From a virus (taxonomy: Duplodnaviria > Heunggongvirae > Uroviricota > Caudoviricetes): DNA of 9,487 bases. Numbering within the stretch: the stretch's first letter is position 1; each line of letters opens with the position of its first letter. Below are positions 1 to 8,787 of this stretch, in pieces. Location of the stretch: the IMG/VR virus record IMGVR_UViG_2534681766_000004; one strand, written 5' to 3'. The notes under the pieces were generated by a model that had not been told where the DNA came from, did no database searches, and saw nothing but the letters and a program-made list of their open reading frames with translations. Made by a program: the position numbers and the translations under genes.

Positions 1-21
1 TGAGGCAGGGAAACGCATGCA

Positions 22-54
22 AAGCCATGCACCTTATCGATGCATGGCTTTTTT
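22..54. terminator. Hairpin terminator just 3' of psu, possibly bidirectional
   Basis: Perfect 10-bp inverted repeat aagccatgca / tgcatggctt (22-31 and 41-50) with a 9-nt loop, followed by TTTTTT at 49-54 on the + strand. On the minus strand it lies just downstream of the psu stop at 85-87. Confidence 0.4.
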
Positions 55-84
55 CAGTAAAAACGGGCGGATTTTCGGGGAATT

Positions 85-642
85 TTACACAGACTGACGT
101 GATGCCAGTTGCGCACTTTTACGCGAAAAAATCATGTTCTGCGCAGGAGTGAATTTTTCACGGCTGTCATCCACCGAAGCCGCGTCAGGCCTGAATCCGA
201 TGGCCGTTAAAATGTCGCTATCCTGTACGGAATAATTAATTTTTTCACCCTTCGCAAGCCAGGACAGAAGGGCTTCACGCAGGGCATCTGTGGCACGCTG
301 TATGGCACAGTTTCGGGCAATGGCCGTCAGCTCACTGTAGCCCATCAGCTCCGGTGCCAGTGCCGCCGCCAGTGCTGTGCCGTGCTGCTGCATAAAATCA
401 TTCAGCCGGTCGCGGATGCTGATGTGCTGAACGGCTTCATGCGAACGAATATAACGACCAGCGGCCTGATTCACCTGCCATTTTCTGACTTCGATAATAT
501 TGCGTAATTCGTCCAGGCGACTGACGTTTCTGCCTTCTCCTGACAGAAGCCGCAGATATTCCTGTTCGGCCGCTGCCAGCTCATTTTTGCGTTGCAGCCA
601 TGCTGCTTTGTTATTCTGACAGGTGTCAAAGGCCTGCTGTAG
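85..642 (-). pseudogene. psu: Polarity suppression protein Psu homolog, 5'-truncated with no in-frame canonical start codon
   Basis: The minus-strand frame is open from 666 down to the stop at 85-87. From codon 640-642 it reads LQQAFDTCQNNKAAWLQRKNELAAAEQEYLRLLSGEGRNVSRLDELRNIIEVRKWQVNQAAGRYIRS..., which I recognise as Psu-like. Upstream of 642 the frame runs into antisense alpha-derived sequence and hits a stop at 667-669 with no ATG/GTG/TTG; the first possible start is the internal GTG at 472-474 (the 129-aa ORF in the track). Confidence 0.55.
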
Positions 643-736
643 CCCCGCAGGAGCGCGACCCGCAGCTTAAGGACAAAATCACCCGCGAGCTGGCGGTCAT
701 CGTGCGTCACCTGATGCAGAAGTTCAGCGACCCGAT
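640..736 (+). repeat. Ectopic 97-bp exact copy of an internal alpha gene segment, overlying the delta/psu junction
   Basis: 640-736 is base-for-base identical to 6399-6495 in the same orientation (compared by hand). The flanking bases differ on both sides: 639 g vs 6398 a, and 737 t vs 6496 g. Confidence 0.9.
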
Positions 737-1212
737 TGTGTTTTTAACCGTACTGGCGGCAGTTCCTGTTTTTCATGCAGGCGTTCTGCCAGTTCGTCCG
801 GTGTGACCGGGCGGACAATGAAGCGGTTGATGGTCTGAAGCGTTTTAAACACCAGACCACAGCCCGGATCCGTGCACACATAAAAACGCTCGGTGACTTC
901 CTGAGACAGACGCCGCGATGTTCTTGACAGCGCAAGGCCTTTACATCTCCGACAACAATATCCGGTAACAAGCATTCTTTTCGGGCGTTTCATGCTACCG
1001 GAGGCTGACGTCAGTGAATCGCGGTATCTCTGTTTGCCTGAAATGTATTCCATTCCTGAATCTTTACAGTCAGAGAAAAAGCTTTCACTCGCTTCAAATG
1101 TCGCAGAGCAATAAATATTCCGGCACTGTGCAATCATTATCTTGGTGCCATCGTCCATGAAATGTGCGCGACGGGTGTGAGCAACATGTCCACACGACGG
1201 GCAGTAAATCAT
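724..1212 (-). CDS. delta: Delta late-gene transcriptional activator (tandem Ogr-like zinc-finger protein), C-terminus altered
   Basis: 162-aa ORF with two Ogr-type C-x2-C-x22-C-x4-C zinc-finger units (MIYCPSCGH...CRNIYC and YCCRRCKG...CTDPGC). Its ATG at 1210-1212 overlaps the sid stop (ATGA). The last codons and the stop (724-736) lie inside the alpha-derived 97-bp segment. Confidence 0.8.
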   Translation of the reverse strand: MIYCPSCGHVAHTRRAHFMDDGTKIMIAQCRNIYCSATFEASESFFSDCKDSGMEYISGKQRYRDSLTSASGSMKRPKRMLVTGYCCRRCKGLALSRTSRRLSQEVTERFYVCTDPGCGLVFKTLQTINRFIVRPVTPDELAERLHEKQELPPVRLKTQSGR

Positions 1213-1943
1213 GACAGCAGTCCTCTGGCCTTAAGCTCTGCTCCCTGCTGGTCTATTTTGTCCTGCCACACCTTGCGCTGTGCCGGTGTGCCTGCCACCT
1301 CATAATCCATGTGCGGGAGTGTTGCCGCTGACAGTCCGGTCAGCCGGAGAACCGGCTCGCCGGTGAGGCTGATTTGCATCTGTTTTATTTTCTGTTCCAG
1401 CGATGATTTCACCTGCTGCATGACAGCTTTATCGGGTGCGACGTAGCCCTGATGCCCGGTGGTGTTGGCGAGCGGATTTTCCTGTACCAGAATGCTCAGA
1501 TGCATTGCCCGGACAAGCGCCTCACAGGTTTCATTCAGGGCGTGTTCCAGCTCATGCTCTGCATACAGACTCAGCAGGTGATGATGTGCCTTCCGGTAGG
1601 CGGTGGCCGTGCTGTCACACGCCCCTTTCAGGCGTTCACGTTCGAAATTCAGCACCACGGCCAGATTGTCATATTCCTGTACCAGCTCCCGGCGTGCCAC
1701 GCGCTCAATGTGGCGCTGTTTCAGCTCGTCGCTCAGGACACCACCGGCTGCACGAAAGGCCGTGCGCCAGTCGTCAGCGTCGTTTCCGTCGGCCTGCGCC
1801 AGCGCATTTTTTTCCTGCTCTGCCCGTTCAATGGCCGTGACGGTCTCATCCATCAGGCGGGCGTTCTCAAGATGGGCGGCTCTGGCCTTTTCCAGTTGTG
1901 CCAGCGCGGGTTGCAGATATTCAGGGATGGTGTTGTCAGACAT
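1209..1943 (-). CDS. sid: Sid external scaffold (capsid size determination) protein
   Basis: Minus-strand ORF. The ATG at 1941-1943 gives 244 aa starting MSDNTIPEYLQPALAQLEKARAAHL..., preceded by a GAGGAG-like Shine-Dalgarno. The protein is coiled-coil-like and alanine/glutamate-rich. The 266-aa version in the ORF track is an upstream in-frame extension. Confidence 0.85.
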   Translation of the reverse strand: MSDNTIPEYLQPALAQLEKARAAHLENARLMDETVTAIERAEQEKNALAQADGNDADDWRTAFRAAGGVLSDELKQRHIERVARRELVQEYDNLAVVLNFERERLKGACDSTATAYRKAHHHLLSLYAEHELEHALNETCEALVRAMHLSILVQENPLANTTGHQGYVAPDKAVMQQVKSSLEQKIKQMQISLTGEPVLRLTGLSAATLPHMDYEVAGTPAQRKVWQDKIDQQGAELKARGLLS

Positions 1944-1968
1944 TTTCCGGCTCCTCGTCACTTCAGGT

Positions 1969-2033
1969 TGAGAAAATTGTGACGTACACCGGACAACAAC
2001 ACGACGCATTGCAGATGTGCCAGCCCTGACACA
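1969..2033 (-). promoter_or_regulatory. Psid-like late promoter with two Delta/Ogr-type TGT-N12-ACA boxes
   Basis: TGT-gacgtacaccgg-ACA at 1978-1995 and TGT-gccagccctgac-ACA at 2016-2033, centres about 38 bp apart, directly upstream of sid on the minus strand. P2/P4 late promoters use TGT-N12-ACA activator sites. Confidence 0.5.
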
Positions 2034-2112
2034 GGAGACTCATCCTCAGACCGGCAAGCCAGGAAAAGGTCGCAGGAAAAACCGGCTTACTGTTTGTTTT
2101 TTTATATTTTAC

Positions 2113-2216
2113 TGTTCACCTCTGTTAACCATAAGAAAAAAGATAAGTAATACAGTAAGTTAAAGGGTGAACAATCGCAGTAATGACTGTTCACCGTCTG
2201 TTCACCACTGTTCACC
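2113..2216. repeat. Replication origin (ori1-like) iteron cluster, alpha-binding TGTTCACC octamers
   Basis: TGTTCACC at 2113-2120, 2188-2195, 2199-2206 and 2209-2216; the variant TGTTAACC at 2123-2130; the reverse-complement GGTGAACA at 2166-2173. The region is AT-rich and non-coding, about 4.8 kb from the crr repeats downstream of alpha. Confidence 0.7.
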
Positions 2217-2351
2217 CGTTGATGGGCTTTTTATGCTGTTTATTACTGTTTATTTTTATTAATTCACTGAAATAAATAAGAAAAAACAATTTGCATTTCA
2301 CTATAAAAAATTCCAGTTCCTTCAGAACCCTTTGAGACCCTTCCAGTCCGG

Positions 2352-2543
2352 ATGGATAAAAAACACACAGCCATTGTAAGGTTGCCGGAACAAATTCCCC
2401 CTGTTGCGTCTGCTGAAAATATTCACAAAATAAAGCGCTACCCGAAGCCGGACGGACTTATCCGGTGCTGTATGGACATTAACGAGGTAGCCCGATGCAA
2501 GCTGTTTTTTCTTCCCCGTCTCCCGCCCCTGTTACGCCACTGA
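2352..2543 (+). CDS. Hypothetical small protein (63 aa); may instead be untranslated leader or immunity region
   Basis: ORF in the track with no convincing Shine-Dalgarno; it overlaps the better-supported downstream gene by 49 bp in another frame. Confidence 0.2.
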   Translation: MDKKHTAIVRLPEQIPPVASAENIHKIKRYPKPDGLIRCCMDINEVARCKLFFLPRLPPLLRH

Positions 2544-2761
2544 TGCCGCTGCCGGACATCACGCAGGAGCGTTTTTTACGTCTGCCGGAAGTGATGCACC
2601 TGTGCGGCCTGTCACGCTCGACCATCTATGAACTCATCCGTAAGGGGGAATTTCCGCCGCAGGGGAGTCTTGGCGGTAAAAATGTGGCCTGGCTGCACTC
2701 TGAAGTCACCGCATGGATGGCCGGGCGCATTGCCGGACGCAAACGGGGGTACGACGCATGA
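2495..2761 (+). CDS. AlpA/Vis-family small helix-turn-helix regulator (88 aa)
   Basis: Contains [28 protein letters not shown], typical of the AlpA / phage excisionase-like HTH family. GAGGT Shine-Dalgarno 6 nt before the ATG at 2495. Its stop overlaps the next ATG (ATGA at 2758-2761). Confidence 0.75.
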
Positions 2762-3348
2762 TGATGCCCGCTCTGCAAAAACTCCCTTTTTCTGGCTTGC
2801 CTTTTTCCGGCATTTGCGGATATAGTTTTTCCGCTGCCGCAAAATCGGCAGCCGGGCGTGAGAACCCGAGTATGTTATCGGCGACATATGACGCGCCATG
2901 CGTCTTTTTTTGTGTCGCAATCAACGCCACAGAGCGCCAGATTATGGTGTGGCGTGTGGTTTGCCGTGCAGGTATGATCCTGTTCGCAATCGCATGTTAT
3001 GCCACTGAGTCAATGGTAGCTCAGGCGGGGCAGCCTCCGGGCTGGCCGGTATCCGATAACGCCGGTATTCTCACCCCCGTCTGGGCTATCGCCATCGAGC
3101 GTGAGAACTCCGGCGATAGCGTCATTTACGCTGTTATCGGAGGTTGCCTTATGGCTACGACCCTTACCCCCTCACACCCTGAATTTGTCTTTGTGTTTGC
3201 GGCTGTCCGTCGCGCAGACCGTCATCCCCGTATCTGTATGCTTCGCACCGTCGCCGGTGATGAACGCAGCGCCCGCCGTTCCCTTGTCCGTGACTATGTG
3301 CTCTCCCTTGCTGCCCGTCTGCCGGTGGTGGAGGTGTCCCGTGCGTAA
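2758..3348 (+). CDS. Hypothetical protein (about 196 aa)
   Basis: ATG at 2758 overlaps the stop of the upstream gene, and its own stop overlaps the next start (GTGCGTAA). The composition of this frame is more protein-like than the overlapping +2 frame (3101-3340), which is P/L/S/C/R/W-rich. Confidence 0.5.
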
Positions 3349-3628
3349 TAAAAAAGCCCCTCAGACCGTCTCAGCGCGTCATGACGCCCGTGAACACCTC
3401 AGCATTGAGGCTTACCATAAGCTCAACCGCGCCAGCGCCGTATCCCGGTTTGTTGGGGGTGATTTGATTCACCGTGAACTCTCCGGCCTGCATCAGCTCT
3501 ACATTCCGCATATTTTCAGCTACCTGAATGAAGATATTGATTTTGTGCTGAATGAACTGAAAGCCAAAGGCCTGTGCCGCGATTTTCTCGCCCAGCAGAA
3601 AGACCGGGGAGACAGGACGCATGTTTGA
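3341..3628 (+). CDS. Hypothetical small protein (95 aa, GTG start); position and size would fit a P4 epsilon-type gene, not verified
   Basis: GGAGG Shine-Dalgarno 7 nt upstream of the GTG at 3341. There is no internal Met, so the start must be non-ATG. Its stop overlaps the next ATG (ATGTTTGA). Confidence 0.5.
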
Positions 3629-4076
3629 TTTTCCCCAGCCCGGTGAGATTTACCGTTCTGCCGGTTTTCCCGATGTGGCCGTGGTCGGCATTCTGGAAGA
3701 CGGTATTCCGTGGGAAATGCCGTACCGCTGCCCGGAAATTGTCTGGAACCCGTACCGCCGTAAATTCAGTATCCTTGTGCGTATCCTCGCCGACGGGCGC
3801 ACCACAGACATCCCGCTGGGGCGTTTTCTGCGGGAATTTACCTGTGACCGTCCTGACCTGTTTAAACGCAGCCCCGTAAACCGGCATGCGGTACTGAAAG
3901 AAATGGCCGGAGACCCGGAATTACAGAAATGGCGGGAGAAATATCTGGATATTTACCCGCAGGACCCTGTTCCGGTCAGCCGGGCGGCACCGGTGGCGCG
4001 GGAATGGCGGGAAATTCCCCGCACGGAGCCTGACCCGGAAACCACCCCGGATAACAGTTACCGCAATTATCTGTAA
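3621..4076 (+). CDS. Hypothetical protein (151 aa), orf151-like
   Basis: ATG at 3621 is coupled to the upstream stop. The length equals the P4 orf151 that sits upstream of alpha in my recollection; function unknown. Confidence 0.6.
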   Translation: MFDFPQPGEIYRSAGFPDVAVVGILEDGIPWEMPYRCPEIVWNPYRRKFSILVRILADGRTTDIPLGRFLREFTCDRPDLFKRSPVNRHAVLKEMAGDPELQKWREKYLDIYPQDPVPVSRAAPVAREWREIPRTEPDPETTPDNSYRNYL

Positions 4077-4211
4077 TTAAAAAACGACCCCCGAAAAATT
4101 AAATGTGCGTATTCGCGCAGGGATACGCACGTCTTCAGGAGACGCAGATATGCCTTATCAGTTAATGCAACCGGCACGGAATGCAGTCATCTGTCACAGG
4201 GAGGAAAACAA

Positions 4212-4532
4212 ATGAAAACACCCTTACCGCCCGTCTTACGCGCTGCCCTTTACCGTCGCGCTGTCGCCTGTGCCTGGCTGACCGTGTGCGAACGTCAGCA
4301 CCGCTACCCGCATCTCACCCTTGAGTCACTGGAGGCGGCCATCGCCGCTGAGCTGGAAGGCTTTTATCTGCGCCAGCACGGTGAGGAAAAAGGGCGTCAG
4401 ATAGCCTGTGCCCTGCTGGAAGATTTAATGGAATCCGGCCCCCTGAAGGCCGCGCCGTCGCTGTCCTTTCTCGGGCTGGTTGTGATGGATGAACTCTGTG
4501 CCCGTCACATAAAAGCGCCGGTACTGCACTGA
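4212..4532 (+). CDS. Hypothetical protein (106 aa)
   Basis: GGGAGG Shine-Dalgarno about 7 nt upstream of the ATG at 4212; it ends 14 bp before the alpha start. Confidence 0.6.
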
Positions 4533-4546
4533 AGGAGAACTACACC

Positions 4547-6880
4547 ATGAAAATGAACGTAACCGCCACCGTCAGTCATGCGCTCGGCCACTGGCCGCGT
4601 ATTCTCCCGGCGCTGGGGATTCAGGTGCTGAAAAACCGTCATCAGCCCTGTCCGGTCTGTGGCGGGAGTGACCGCTTCCGTTTTGATGACAGGGAGGGGC
4701 GCGGCACCTGGTACTGCAATCAGTGTGGTGCCGGTGACGGCCTGAAACTGGTTGAAAAGGTGTTTGGTGTCTCCCCGTCCGACGCGGCCACAAAGGTGGC
4801 TGCCGTGACCGGCAGCCTGCCCCCGGCTGACCCGGCAGTGACGGCTGCCGCCGGTGCTGAAACAGACGCTGCCCGGAAGAACGCCGCCGCACTGGCACAA
4901 ACCCTGATGGCGAAAACCCGTCCCGGAACCGGTAACGCCTACCTGACCCGCAAGGGCTTTCCCGGCCGGGAATGCCGGATGCTGACCGGCACACACAGAG
5001 CCGGTGGCGTGAGCTGGCGTGCCGGTGACCTTGTGGTGCCACTGTATGACGACAGCGGCGAACTGGTTAACCTTCAGTTAATCAGTGCTGACGGCCGTAA
5101 GCGCACCCTGAAAGGCGGGCAGGTCAGGGGCACCTGTCACATCCTTGAAGGACAGAATCAGGCCGGAAAACGTCTGTGGATAGCGGAGGGATACGCGACC
5201 GCACTTACCGTGCATCACCTGACCGGTGAAACGGTGATGGTGGCGCTTTCTTCCGTGAATCTCCTTTCTCTGGCCAGCCTTGCCCGGCAGAAGCATCCGG
5301 CCTGTCAGATTGTCCTTGCTGCTGACCGTGACCTCAGCGGTGACGGCCAGAAAAAAGCCGCCGCAGCCGCAGATGCGTGTGAAGGTGTTGTTGCCCTGCC
5401 GCCGGTCTTCGGTGACTGGAATGATGCCTTCACGCAGTACGGCGGGGAAGCCACCCGTAAGGCCATTTATGATGCCATCCGGCCACCGGCTGAAAGCCCG
5501 TTCGACACCATGAGCGAAGCGGAGTTTTCCGCCATGAGTACCAGCGAAAAGGCCATGCGTATCTATGAGCATTACGGCGAGGCGCTCGCGGTCGATGCCA
5601 ACGGCCAGCTTCTGTCCCGCTATGAAAATGGTGTCTGGAAGGTGCTGCCGCCACAGGACTTTGCCCGGGATGTGGCCGGGCTGTTTCAGCGTCTGCGCGC
5701 GCCGTTCTCCTCCGGGAAGGTGGCCTCCGTGGTGGACACCCTGAAGCTGATTATTCCGCAGCAGGAAGCCCCCTCCCGCCGCCTGATTGGCTTTCGTAAC
5801 GGCGTGCTCGACACGCAGAACGGCACGTTCCACCCGCACAGTCCGTCACACTGGATGCGCACCCTGTGCGATGTGGATTTCACCCCGCCGGTGGACGGTG
5901 AAACGCTGGAGACCCACGCCCCCGCGTTCTGGCGCTGGCTTGACCGTGCCGCCGGTGGCCGTGCGGAAAAACGCGACGTGATTCTGGCCGCACTGTTTAT
6001 GGTGCTGGCAAACCGCTACGACTGGCAGCTCTTTCTGGAGGTGACCGGTCCCGGCGGCAGCGGCAAAAGTATCATGGCCGAAATAGCCACCCTGCTGGCC
6101 GGGGAGGATAACGCCACGTCGGCCACCATTGAGACGCTGGAATCCCCGCGTGAACGTGCCGCGTTAACTGGCTTCTCACTGATACGCCTGCCGGACCAGG
6201 AAAAATGGAGCGGCGACGGAGCCGGACTCAAGGCCATCACCGGCGGCGATGCAGTGTCCGTTGACCCGAAATACCGGGATGCGTACTCCACGCACATCCC
6301 GGCGGTGATTCTGGCCGTGAACAATAACCCGATGCGCTTCACCGACCGCAGCGGCGGCGTGTCACGCCGGCGGGTGATTATTCACTTCCCGGAACAGATA
6401 GCCCCGCAGGAGCGCGACCCGCAGCTTAAGGACAAAATCACCCGCGAGCTGGCGGTCATCGTGCGTCACCTGATGCAGAAGTTCAGCGACCCGATGCTCG
6501 CCCGGTCACTGCTTCAGTCCCAGCAGAACTCAGACGAGGCACTGAACATCAAACGGGATGCCGACCCGACGTTTGATTTTATCGGCTATCTGGAAACCCT
6601 GCCGCAGACCAGCGGCATGTATATGGGGAACGCCAGTATCATCCCGCGTAATTACCGTAAATACCTCTATCACGCCTATCTGGCCTACATGGAGGCAAAC
6701 GGCTACCGGAATGTACTCAGTCTGAAAATGTTCGGGCTGGGGCTACCGGTGATGCTGAAGGAATACGGACTGAATTACGAGAAGCGCCATACCAAACAGG
6801 GGATACAGACCAACCTGACGCTGAAAGAGGAAAGCTACGGCGACTGGCTGCCAAAATGTGACGACCCTGCAACAACCTGA
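4547..6880 (+). CDS. alpha: Alpha protein: bifunctional DNA primase / helicase with C-terminal origin-binding domain
   Basis: 777-aa ORF with an AAGGAG Shine-Dalgarno. N-terminal zinc-binding primase motif CPVCGGSDRFRFDD...WYCNQCG; a Toprim-like segment; Walker A GPGGSGKS; the conserved RRRVIIHFP...DPQLKDKITRELAVIV motif typical of D5/P4-type primase-helicases. Antisense ORFs inside it are GC-rich noise. Confidence 0.95.
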   Translation: MKMNVTATVSHALGHWPRILPALGIQVLKNRHQPCPVCGGSDRFRFDDREGRGTWYCNQCGAGDGLKLVEKVFGVSPSDAATKVAAVTGSLPPADPAVTAAAGAETDAARKNAAALAQTLMAKTRPGTGNAYLTRKGFPGRECRMLTGTHRAGGVSWRAGDLVVPLYDDSGELVNLQLISADGRKRTLKGGQVRGTCHILEGQNQAGKRLWIAEGYATALTVHHLTGETVMVALSSVNLLSLASLARQKHPACQIVLAADRDLSGDGQKKAAAAADACEGVVALPPVFGDWNDAFTQYGGEATRKAIYDAIRPPAESPFDTMSEAEFSAMSTSEKAMRIYEHYGEALAVDANGQLLSRYENGVWKVLPPQDFARDVAGLFQRLRAPFSSGKVASVVDTLKLIIPQQEAPSRRLIGFRNGVLDTQNGTFHPHSPSHWMRTLCDVDFTPPVDGETLETHAPAFWRWLDRAAGGRAEKRDVILAALFMVLANRYDWQLFLEVTGPGGSGKSIMAEIATLLAGEDNATSATIETLESPRERAALTGFSLIRLPDQEKWSGDGAGLKAITGGDAVSVDPKYRDAYSTHIPAVILAVNNNPMRFTDRSGGVSRRRVIIHFPEQIAPQERDPQLKDKITRELAVIVRHLMQKFSDPMLARSLLQSQQNSDEALNIKRDADPTFDFIGYLETLPQTSGMYMGNASIIPRNYRKYLYHAYLAYMEANGYRNVLSLKMFGLGLPVMLKEYGLNYEKRHTKQGIQTNLTLKEESYGDWLPKCDDPATT
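6399..6495 (+). repeat. Native copy, inside alpha, of the 97-bp segment duplicated at 640-736
   Basis: Identical to 640-736. Here it is in frame within alpha and encodes a conserved primase-helicase motif (APQERDPQLKDKITRELAVIVRHLMQKFSDP), so this is the original and the copy at 640-736 is the ectopic one. Confidence 0.9.
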
Positions 6881-6896
6881 CCCTCATGACTCATCT

Positions 6897-6921
6897 GACC
6901 GGCATCTGCCGGTCTTTTTTT
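6897..6921 (+). terminator. Rho-independent terminator of the alpha operon
   Basis: Stem gaccggc (6897-6903) pairs with gccggtc (6908-6914) around a 4-nt loop, followed by TTTTTTT at 6915-6921, 17 bp after the alpha stop. Confidence 0.6.
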
Positions 6922-6939
6922 ATCCCGATATCCCCCGCA

Positions 6940-7240
6940 GGTGAACAATCCACTGTTCACCCTTCACCGTATATTCACCCGTTATCATACTGAAATTAAA
7001 AGAGAAAAACGAAAGGTGAACAGTGTGAACAATCAAATCAAAAAAAACTTTTTTTCTCCCTGTGTGATTTCAGTACGGGGGATTAATCACCGGTATGAGT
7101 CACACCGGCAGAATGCCGGAGGTGAAGAATCGAATGTTCACCCTTCACCCATTATTCACCACCTATCATACTGAAATAAAAGGAGAAAACAGAAAGGTGA
7201 ACAGTGTGAACAGTTCTTTCGAAAAAAAAATTTTTTCCTG
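6940..7240. repeat. crr (cis replication region): two direct repeats of about 108 bp carrying TGTTCACC / GGTGAACA iterons
   Basis: Repeat 1 (about 6953-7062) and repeat 2 (about 7134-7240) align closely (..tgttcacccttcacc..tcatactgaaat..aaaggtgaacagtgtgaaca..poly-A/T). Each carries several octamers matching the ori iterons. The 77-aa ORF at 6941-7174 is a translation of these repeats. Confidence 0.75.
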
Positions 7241-7400: not shown

Positions 7401-7426
7401 GTACTGAAGTTCAGTAAAGTCTACTA

Positions 7427-7460
7427 AGCCCGCACAGCACAAGCTCTGCGGGCTTTTTTA
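7427..7460 (+). terminator. Rho-independent terminator upstream of int
   Basis: Stem agcccgca (7427-7434) pairs with tgcgggct (7447-7454), followed by TTTTTT at 7455-7460. Confidence 0.5.
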
Positions 7461-7515
7461 CGTCTATTGTAGTCTAGTGAGAATTGCTGAGAACTACGAG
7501 TTATGGCACCCTGAA

Positions 7516-7553
7516 TGGGACCCACGAAGATGGGTCCTAAAATCGAGGGTCCC
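7516..7553 (+). promoter_or_regulatory. Inverted GGGACCC / GGGTCCC repeats in the int leader, overlapping its Shine-Dalgarno
   Basis: gggaccc at 7517-7523, gggtcct at 7532-7537 (6 of 7) and gggtccc at 7547-7553. The last overlaps the GAGGG Shine-Dalgarno of int, so pairing could sequester the ribosome-binding site or form a protein-binding site. Confidence 0.3.
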
Positions 7554-7557
7554 AAAC

Positions 7558-8787
7558 ATGGCCAAAATCGCTAAGAAGCTCACTGACACTGAAATCAAAA
7601 GCACCAACCCTGCCGAAAAAGAGGTTAACCTTTTTGACGGCGATGGTTTGCTGTTGCGAATCGCTCCCCTGGCGAAGGGAGGGAAGAAAAATTGGTATTT
7701 CAGATATGCAGTGCCTGTGACCAAAAAGCGAACTAAGGTGAGCTTAGGAACCTATCCTCACCTTACACTTGCGAAGGCACGAGCTTTACGTGATGAATAC
7801 TTGTCGTTGCTTACAAATGGTATAGACCCCCAAGTTCATAACAACCAAAAAGCCAATGCACTGAAAGATGCCACGGAACATACATTTCAAGCAGTAGCCA
7901 AGAAGTGGCTTGATGAGAAAGTCAAAACGTCAGGCATCTCCCAAGATCATGCTAACGACATCTGGCGAAGCCTAGAGAGAAATATCTTTTCCACATTGGG
8001 TGATACCCCAATTAAGGAGATTCGCCCTAAAATGCTTAAACAGCATTTAGAACCCATAGAAAAACGAGGGGTCCTTGAAACACTTCGCCGCATCATATCC
8101 CGCCTGAATGAAATTTTCCGCTATGCAGCAACAGAAGAACTCATAGAATTCAACCCGGCAGACAACCTGGGGCAACGGTTCAGCAAGCCAAAAAAACAGA
8201 ATATGCCAGCATTACCCCCTTCCGAACTCCCTCGCTTCTTGGTTGCTCTAAACAATGCTTCTATCCGTTTGGAAACAAGGCTACTGATTGAGTGGCAACT
8301 TCTCACATGGGTTCGCCCAGGTGAAGCTGTTCGCACAAGATGGTCAGATATTGATATTGAAACTGGCATGTGGAACATCCCGGCGGAGTTTATGAAAATG
8401 AAGAAGCCTCACAAAGTTCCACTGAGCAAAGAAGCTTTGCGAGTTTTGGATTTAATGAAAGTCATCAGCGGGCATAGAGAGTGGGTGTTCCCCAGTATCA
8501 AAGCTCCACTCAATCACATGCATGAACAAACAGCTAATGCGGCCATAATCCGTATGGGTTTCGGAGGTGAGCTTGTAGCTCACGGTATGCGATCCATTGC
8601 TAGAACGGCTGCTGAGGAGTCTGGCAAGTTTAGGACTGATGTCTTAGAAGCCGCCCTTGCCCACTCGAAGAAAGATGAAATAATTGCAGCCTACAATCGT
8701 GCAGAGTATCTCACTGAACGGGTGGTTCTCATGCAATGGTGGAGTGACTATGTTTCGTCTCAAAAATGCAAAGTTATTGCCGCATAA
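7558..8787 (+). CDS. int: Tyrosine site-specific integrase, P4 family (N-terminal arm-binding domain plus C-terminal catalytic domain)
   Basis: 409 aa from the ATG at 7558 (MAKIAKKLTDTEIK...) with a GAGGG Shine-Dalgarno. N-terminal arm-binding-like region (GLLLRI...KNWYFRY...LGTYP); catalytic signatures VRPGEAVRTRWSDID, HGMRSIART (HxxR) and AAYNRAEY (nucleophile Tyr). The upstream in-frame extension from 7477 begins right after a stop and is not credible. Confidence 0.9.
   Translation: MAKIAKKLTDTEIKSTNPAEKEVNLFDGDGLLLRIAPLAKGGKKNWYFRYAVPVTKKRTKVSLGTYPHLTLAKARALRDEYLSLLTNGIDPQVHNNQKANALKDATEHTFQAVAKKWLDEKVKTSGISQDHANDIWRSLERNIFSTLGDTPIKEIRPKMLKQHLEPIEKRGVLETLRRIISRLNEIFRYAATEELIEFNPADNLGQRFSKPKKQNMPALPPSELPRFLVALNNASIRLETRLLIEWQLLTWVRPGEAVRTRWSDIDIETGMWNIPAEFMKMKKPHKVPLSKEALRVLDLMKVISGHREWVFPSIKAPLNHMHEQTANAAIIRMGFGGELVAHGMRSIARTAAEESGKFRTDVLEAALAHSKKDEIIAAYNRAEYLTERVVLMQWWSDYVSSQKCKVIAA

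Follow-up and report, generated by a model that had tools for sequence, protein, structure and literature searches.

P4-like satellites have a core gene set that comprises int, psu, delta and sid as well as alpA, epsilon and alpha (de Sousa and Rocha 2021). The P4 Delta protein (166 aa; X51522 CAA35905.1, NC_001609 P4p13) is an Ogr/Delta late-gene transactivator built from two units with eight cysteines, and its gene lies between sid and psu in the late operon sid-delta-psu and overlaps sid by 4 nt. The promoters that a P4-type Delta switches on are Psid and PLL of P4 and the late promoters of the helper P2. P4 Psu (190 aa) is a polarity-suppression and capsid-decoration protein whose structural integrity depends on its N-terminal part; L21P and E56K, two mutations in that part, render Psu defective (PMC3737525). 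In P4, delta ends at 10814 and psu starts at 10888, with no overlap and a 73-nt spacer between them. This spacer holds a GC-rich hairpin (dyad symmetry annotated at X02534 217-244) and the purine-rich psu ribosome site. Natural P4-like satellites without psu are common; they mostly carry other genes at the psu position, and only 8% have a psu pseudogene (PMC8628076).

The window analysed here is the entire contig APXD01000093.1, 9,487 nt long, from the draft whole-genome shotgun (WGS) assembly GCA_000356325.2 of E. coli. Positions 1-7235 are collinear with phage P4 (NC_001609 11544-4291) at 96.5% identity, except for one replaced segment at delta and psu. The genes run in the order psu, delta and sid (minus strand), then the immunity region, then alpA, epsilon, orf151, orf106 and alpha (plus strand), and two crr repeats come last. 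Of the core set, homologues of sid, delta, alpA, epsilon (Derepression) and alpha are present, along with a remnant of psu that keeps the Psu domain but has no start. Outside the lesion at delta and psu, no P4 gene or RNA in the window is damaged. The features and their positions are collected in the table.

The window is a P4-like satellite prophage together with what is probably the start of a neighbouring island. Past the end of the P4 homology, at 7477-8787, lies an integrase gene whose product shares just 35% identity with P4 Int. The closest complete genome is NZ_CM196107 (98.1% identity); there the satellite has its own int by ssrA, beyond psu, and a second island comes after alpha. Judged by that layout, the integrase in the window probably belongs to a neighbouring tandem island, and the satellite's own int would probably lie off the contig. 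A 34-nt segment of the window, 7426-7459, recurs in the closest E. coli prophage (L004, 557-590), where it sits between ssrA and the first integrase.

Table. Features of the window and, in the last two rows, of distant satellites used for comparison. Positions are those of the window unless another sequence is named.
Feature	Position	Strand	Description
psu remnant	85..642	-	codons 6-190 and stop; start codon, ribosome site and codons 1-5 deleted
Exact copy of alpha 6399-6495	640..736	+	97 nt in alpha's orientation, antisense to delta and psu; repeat search (100% identity) and alignment
Left junction microhomology	640..641		TA, common to psu codon 6 (TTA in P4) and alpha
Bases attributable to alpha alone	642..733	+	92 nt; compared by script against P4 and L004, the closest E. 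coli prophage
Right junction microhomology	734..736		GAT, common to the delta Q159/S160 codons and alpha
delta	724..1212	-	162 aa, two Ogr/Delta zinc-finger units, tail KTQSGR then stop; protein WP_032245275.1
G161, R162 and TGA stop of delta	724..732	-	bases solely from alpha antisense
Last codons of delta	738-736, 735-733, 732-730, 729-727, 726-724	-	Q159, S160, G161, R162, stop
sid	1209..1943	-	244 aa, intact; first gene of the late operon sid-delta-psu
a1b1 target of C4/CI RNA	2820-2872		intact, score above Rfam gathering threshold
isrK	2833-2910		intact, score above Rfam gathering threshold
C4/CI RNA	3009-3096		P4 immunity RNA, intact, score above Rfam gathering threshold
alpha primase-helicase	4547..6880	+	777 aa, intact; holds the donor segment
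Donor copy in intact alpha	6399..6495	+	about codons 618-650, ...IAPQERDPQLKDKITRELAVIVRHLMQKFSDPM...
crr repeats	6935-7056 and 7116-7237		P4 homology ends here
Tandem Ogr/Delta loci	L007 3832-5255, L009 4038-5267, L011 3856-5255		after a sid-like gene
Last units with R-L-E end	L007 5001-5255, L009 5001-5267, L011 5001-5255		last gene of each tandem locus

A repeat search of the window finds one exact direct repeat (97/97 nt), with one copy inside intact alpha and the other across the boundary of delta and psu. An exact repeat of this length within 9.5 kb is not explicable by chance. The first-pass annotation, made from the letters of the window, had placed the end of the delta ORF inside a 97-bp alpha copy, and this is borne out, with the stop codon lying within the exact repeat. 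The event was mapped with a script and by aligning the window at the DNA level with P4, another P4-like sequence and the donor in alpha. A canonical segment of 111 nt (NC_001609 10793-10903, X02534 168-278), which has the same sequence in P4 and in the closest prophage, is swapped for 92 nt of alpha. The lost segment contained delta codons 161-166 and their TGA, the intergenic spacer, psu codons 1-5 and one base, the first, of codon 6. Delta exchanges its six terminal residues, YSLRLE, for GR and a stop, and psu is left without its ribosome site, its ATG and its first five codons. When the native spacer and the new junction were folded as RNA, neither was better than shuffled sequence (z about 0), and only the local GC hairpin of the native spacer stands out.

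On the plus strand, a 68-aa ORF at 600-806 runs antisense to psu and delta and retains 31 alpha residues in frame (PQERDPQLKDKITRELAVIVRHLMQKFSDP). It has been gene-called in a public collection and has no Pfam match, and it is probably spurious.

The alignment of Delta with P4 Delta over its end, which the first-pass annotation had proposed as a check, shows a native protein with an exchanged tail. The two are identical up to S160 except for S49C, C72G and G73S, all three of which are polymorphisms common among E. coli homologues; from there the window protein ends KTQSGR where the canonical one ends KTQSYSLRLE. The lengths given by the first-pass annotation, 162 aa for this Delta and 166 aa for that of P4, agree with the ORF and with the P4 annotation. 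Its attribution of the tail QSGR and the stop to alpha antisense was right with one refinement: Q159 and S160 are native residues, and the bases due to alpha alone are those of G161, R162 and the stop, plus the wobble base of S160. The S160 codon has changed from TCA to TCG, which is synonymous, and its third base (position 733) is solely alpha-derived.

The body of the protein is preserved. Delta matches the Pfam family Ogr_Delta (PF04606) with 77.7 bits against a cut-off of 26.3, in two stretches, and the eight zinc-binding cysteines, arranged as CxxC ... CxxxxC (C4, C7, C30 and C35 in one unit; C87, C90, C113 and C118 in the other), are invariant with respect to P4 Delta. Both zinc-finger units are therefore intact, as had been claimed. 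The window Delta also shares with its P4 counterpart the two-unit architecture, the place between sid and psu in a collinear sid-delta-psu order, and the 4-nt overlap of sid and delta. It differs in the exchange of YSLRLE for GR, which removes the terminal R-L-E, and in a stop codon and 3' flank that are alpha antisense.

Downstream, the psu remnant still matches the Pfam family Psu (E=1e-88). Unlike the P4 operon, the window has no spacer with its dyad symmetry, no psu ribosome site, no psu ATG and no codons 1-5. The first-pass annotation had described this as the loss of a normal delta-psu overlap or coupling; this does not hold, as the P4 genes are separated by a spacer, and what was lost is that spacer, the psu Shine-Dalgarno sequence, the ATG and the first five codons. 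Read upstream of the remnant, the psu frame runs through a stop followed by AAGRAPAGLQQAFDTCQ, and no in-frame ATG, GTG or TTG precedes the GTG at 474 (V62). One gene caller proposes a CTG start at 597, which would give a 170-aa product. A read-through fusion of Delta and Psu was considered and rejected: the two are in the same frame, but three more in-frame stops (699, 681 and 669) intervene. The gene is best regarded as effectively a pseudogene, and Psu would not be translated as a functional protein.

To judge what the lost tail of Delta may mean, relatives of its second domain were collected with an exhaustive search of representative sequences and a profile search. Single-unit relatives that are 35-45% identical to Delta domain 2 come from at least three lineages. 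Their ends read KTASHTMRLE in proteins of 88 aa, KRHSYATRLE in proteins of 84 aa and KRERYVTRLE in a Yersinia ruckeri protein, and a fourth group of relatives ends otherwise, in CYSSPFRN/H. The proteins with an R-L-E end are encoded by the final gene in tandem arrays of two or three Ogr/Delta genes, which come immediately after a sid-like gene in P4-like satellites, and the upstream Ogr/Delta units of these loci are without the terminal RLE. Examples of distant satellites with split Delta genes are Yersinia ruckeri CP098722 (L007) and the Logan contigs L009 and L011; here the last unit, which can be aligned with P4 Delta domain 2, has the end S/R-[YH]-x-x-R-L-E. These satellites have two or three separate unit genes, whereas the window Delta is the fused two-unit form without the terminal motif. 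They also have no psu, and defence-like cargo (TIR/SEFIR, reverse transcriptase, HATPase) is found there instead.

The motif S/R-[YH]-x-x-R-L-E stands at the very C-terminus and is preceded by about 20 variable residues. Its R-L-E is encoded as CGT CTG GAA, CGC CTT GAA, CGG TTA GAA or CGG TTG GAG, depending on the lineage, and these synonymous differences indicate purifying selection that acts on the peptide and not on the DNA. By these comparisons R-L-E is the sole conserved element of an otherwise variable C-terminal extension in distant satellite Delta proteins, and the native end S-[YH]-x-x-R-L-E is what is missing from the window Delta, at 724-741. The lost tail does not look dispensable when compared in this way, and such a conserved motif at the end of a flexible tail would suit a peptide that binds a partner. 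For canonical Delta, AlphaFold2 gives a model with a mean pLDDT of 47.7, with the tail below 50, and because of this low confidence it neither supports nor excludes a structured role of the tail. A literature search of limited reach found no mutational work on Delta or Ogr C-termini and no description of a terminal R-L-E motif.

The substitution is a private event on one draft contig. A 261-nt query that spans the junctions was searched against 5,426 complete E. coli genomes; none has the junction, and no place covers at least 80% of the query. In 1,073 of the 5,426 the query matches as two pieces with P4 spacing, which is the canonical arrangement. The same query has no match among plasmids, and among phage records it finds only canonical P4-type sequences and no junction. 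None of the genome, viral and metagenome contig collections contains the exact 22- and 24-mers that cover the two junctions. The exact 162-aa Delta is recorded on APXD01000093.1 only, and belongs to a 90%-identity cluster of 1,271 members, of which the full-length ones that were read are all 166 aa long. The claim of a replaced tail also stands up to the comparison with homologues that the first-pass annotation had named as a possible refutation, since none ends in QSGR and the full-length close homologues that were read all end SYSLRLE. The lack of this Delta from the Logan assemblies says nothing either way, since those are built with a short k and would be interrupted by a repeat of 97 nt.

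Two other one-off joins at this boundary were seen in Logan. One protein of 283 aa (P0033) has Delta 1-70 joined into the spacer hairpin and reads through into Psu, and another of 218 aa (P0027) has Delta 1-82 joined to Psu residue 55. These fusions suggest that the delta/psu boundary is a recurrent site of prophage rearrangement, or of assembly error.

We consider the locus to be a real, recent and private mutation in a P4-like prophage, with a probability of about 0.72: a template switch from the prophage's own alpha, as a step of prophage decay, with Delta activity probably reduced or altered. The event would have begun with a break or a replication stall at the hairpin-containing spacer between delta and psu. 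The nascent strand would then have primed on 2-3 nt of microhomology in the prophage's own alpha, 5.76 kb away, and 92 nt of alpha would have been copied before a switch back, so that 111 nt were replaced. The scar combines a hairpin-centred deletion, a direct-orientation fill-in from an intact donor, microhomologies of 2 and 3 nt and a length that is not conserved, a pattern typical of microhomology-mediated template switching or break repair. The microhomologies lend this mechanism modest support; we calculate, from the standard expression P(k)=(k+1)(1/4)^k(3/4)^2, that 2 nt or more would occur at random junctions with p about 0.16, and 3 nt or more with p about 0.05. FoSTeS/MMBIR-type templated insertion and microhomology-dependent alternative end joining in E. 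coli are known processes that the scar resembles (a deletion filled by a short direct-orientation copy, 2-3 nt of microhomology, a hairpin at the site), and the mechanism is inferred from the scar. The 100% identity of the two copies and the intactness of every other gene and RNA point to a recent event.

The strain might instead be canonical, and the join an artefact of assembly or finishing in which a read-length piece of alpha was misplaced into a gap or low-coverage spot at the hairpin spacer. The source is a short contig of one draft WGS assembly, the variant is found nowhere else, the 97-nt insert is near a typical short-read length (about one 100-nt read), and the GC-rich hairpin of the replaced segment can give poor coverage. 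On the other hand, overlap and de Bruijn assemblers need k-mers in common to make a join, and here insert and flanks have just 2-3 nt in common at either end; the swap of 92 for 111 nt is not length-neutral, the junctions resemble biological microhomology joins, and the rest of the contig is a clean, fully collinear P4-like element. We regard such an artefact as unlikely. A tail gained by recombination with another P4-like lineage that has it natively would fit only the general mosaicism of P4-like elements. The insert is 100% identical to the prophage's own alpha over 97 nt and keeps the alpha reading frame on the plus strand, and no homologue with a QSGR tail is present in any collection searched. 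The identity to its own alpha and the lack of any lineage with this tail effectively refute this import. Nor do we give much credit to a selected innovation, in which the alpha fragment was kept as a late-transcript antisense that lowers alpha, or in which the new tail or the loss of psu was advantageous. The late transcript does necessarily hold about 97 nt perfectly complementary to alpha mRNA, and psu-less P4-like satellites are frequent in nature, but most of those carry other genes at that place and a psu pseudogene is found in only 8% (PMC8628076). The variant also occurs once, with no sign of spread or conservation, and the 100% identity to the donor points to a very recent event, with no time for visible selection. 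An adaptive origin is accordingly very improbable.

A different question is whether the new tail matters to Delta. The first-pass annotation held that activity may be preserved, and it is possible, though we lean against it, that the change is neutral, the zinc-finger units suffice and the 162-aa protein is fully active. Both Ogr_Delta units and all eight cysteines are intact, the C-terminal 20 residues are predicted at low confidence and may be disordered, and homologues vary in the stretch that leads up to the tail. The related P2 Ogr reportedly stays active when truncated at its C-terminus, so the Delta tail might be dispensable. Against this, three lineages whose identity to P4 Delta domain 2 is no more than 35-45% keep S-[YH]-x-x-R-L-E with synonymous codon differences, and SYSLRLE stands in all full-length close homologues read from the 1,271-member cluster. 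Of the earlier suggestion, then, the intact zinc fingers stand, while preserved activity is doubtful, with the conserved R-L-E among the six lost residues. The mutated Delta keeps its DNA-binding zinc-finger core without the conserved C-terminal motif, and its activator function is probably reduced or altered; we favour this over full activity by roughly 60:40 to 70:30.

A template switch of this kind would have consequences beyond the two genes at the scar. The late sid-delta-psu transcript would carry about 97 nt antisense to alpha mRNA, and the 97-nt direct repeats would make the intervening 5.76 kb prone to deletion by homologous recombination. The stretch between the repeats takes in delta and sid, the immunity region and alpha from codon 1 to about codon 617, so that such recombination would delete the satellite core. 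It is a long shot that the late antisense also triggers duplex-dependent cleavage of alpha mRNA, for example by RNase III, and that the allele amounts to a natural knockout of the conserved Delta C-terminal motif. If that were true, an accidental new regulatory link would run from late gene expression to replication, and the motif S-[YH]-x-x-R-L-E, which is apparently undescribed, would bind a partner that is perhaps RNA polymerase.

The lesion is an ordinary one-off decay step in a very common and well-studied satellite prophage, and not a designed feature. Annotators should note that a rearrangement lies behind both WP_032245275.1, named 'ogr/Delta-like zinc finger protein', and the 'Psu' call next to it. 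For the biology of E. coli and its satellites, it offers a clean natural example of a templated, microhomology-flanked substitution at a hairpin, and, as a by-product, it draws attention to the conserved extreme C-terminal R-L-E of satellite Delta proteins as a candidate determinant of helper transactivation.
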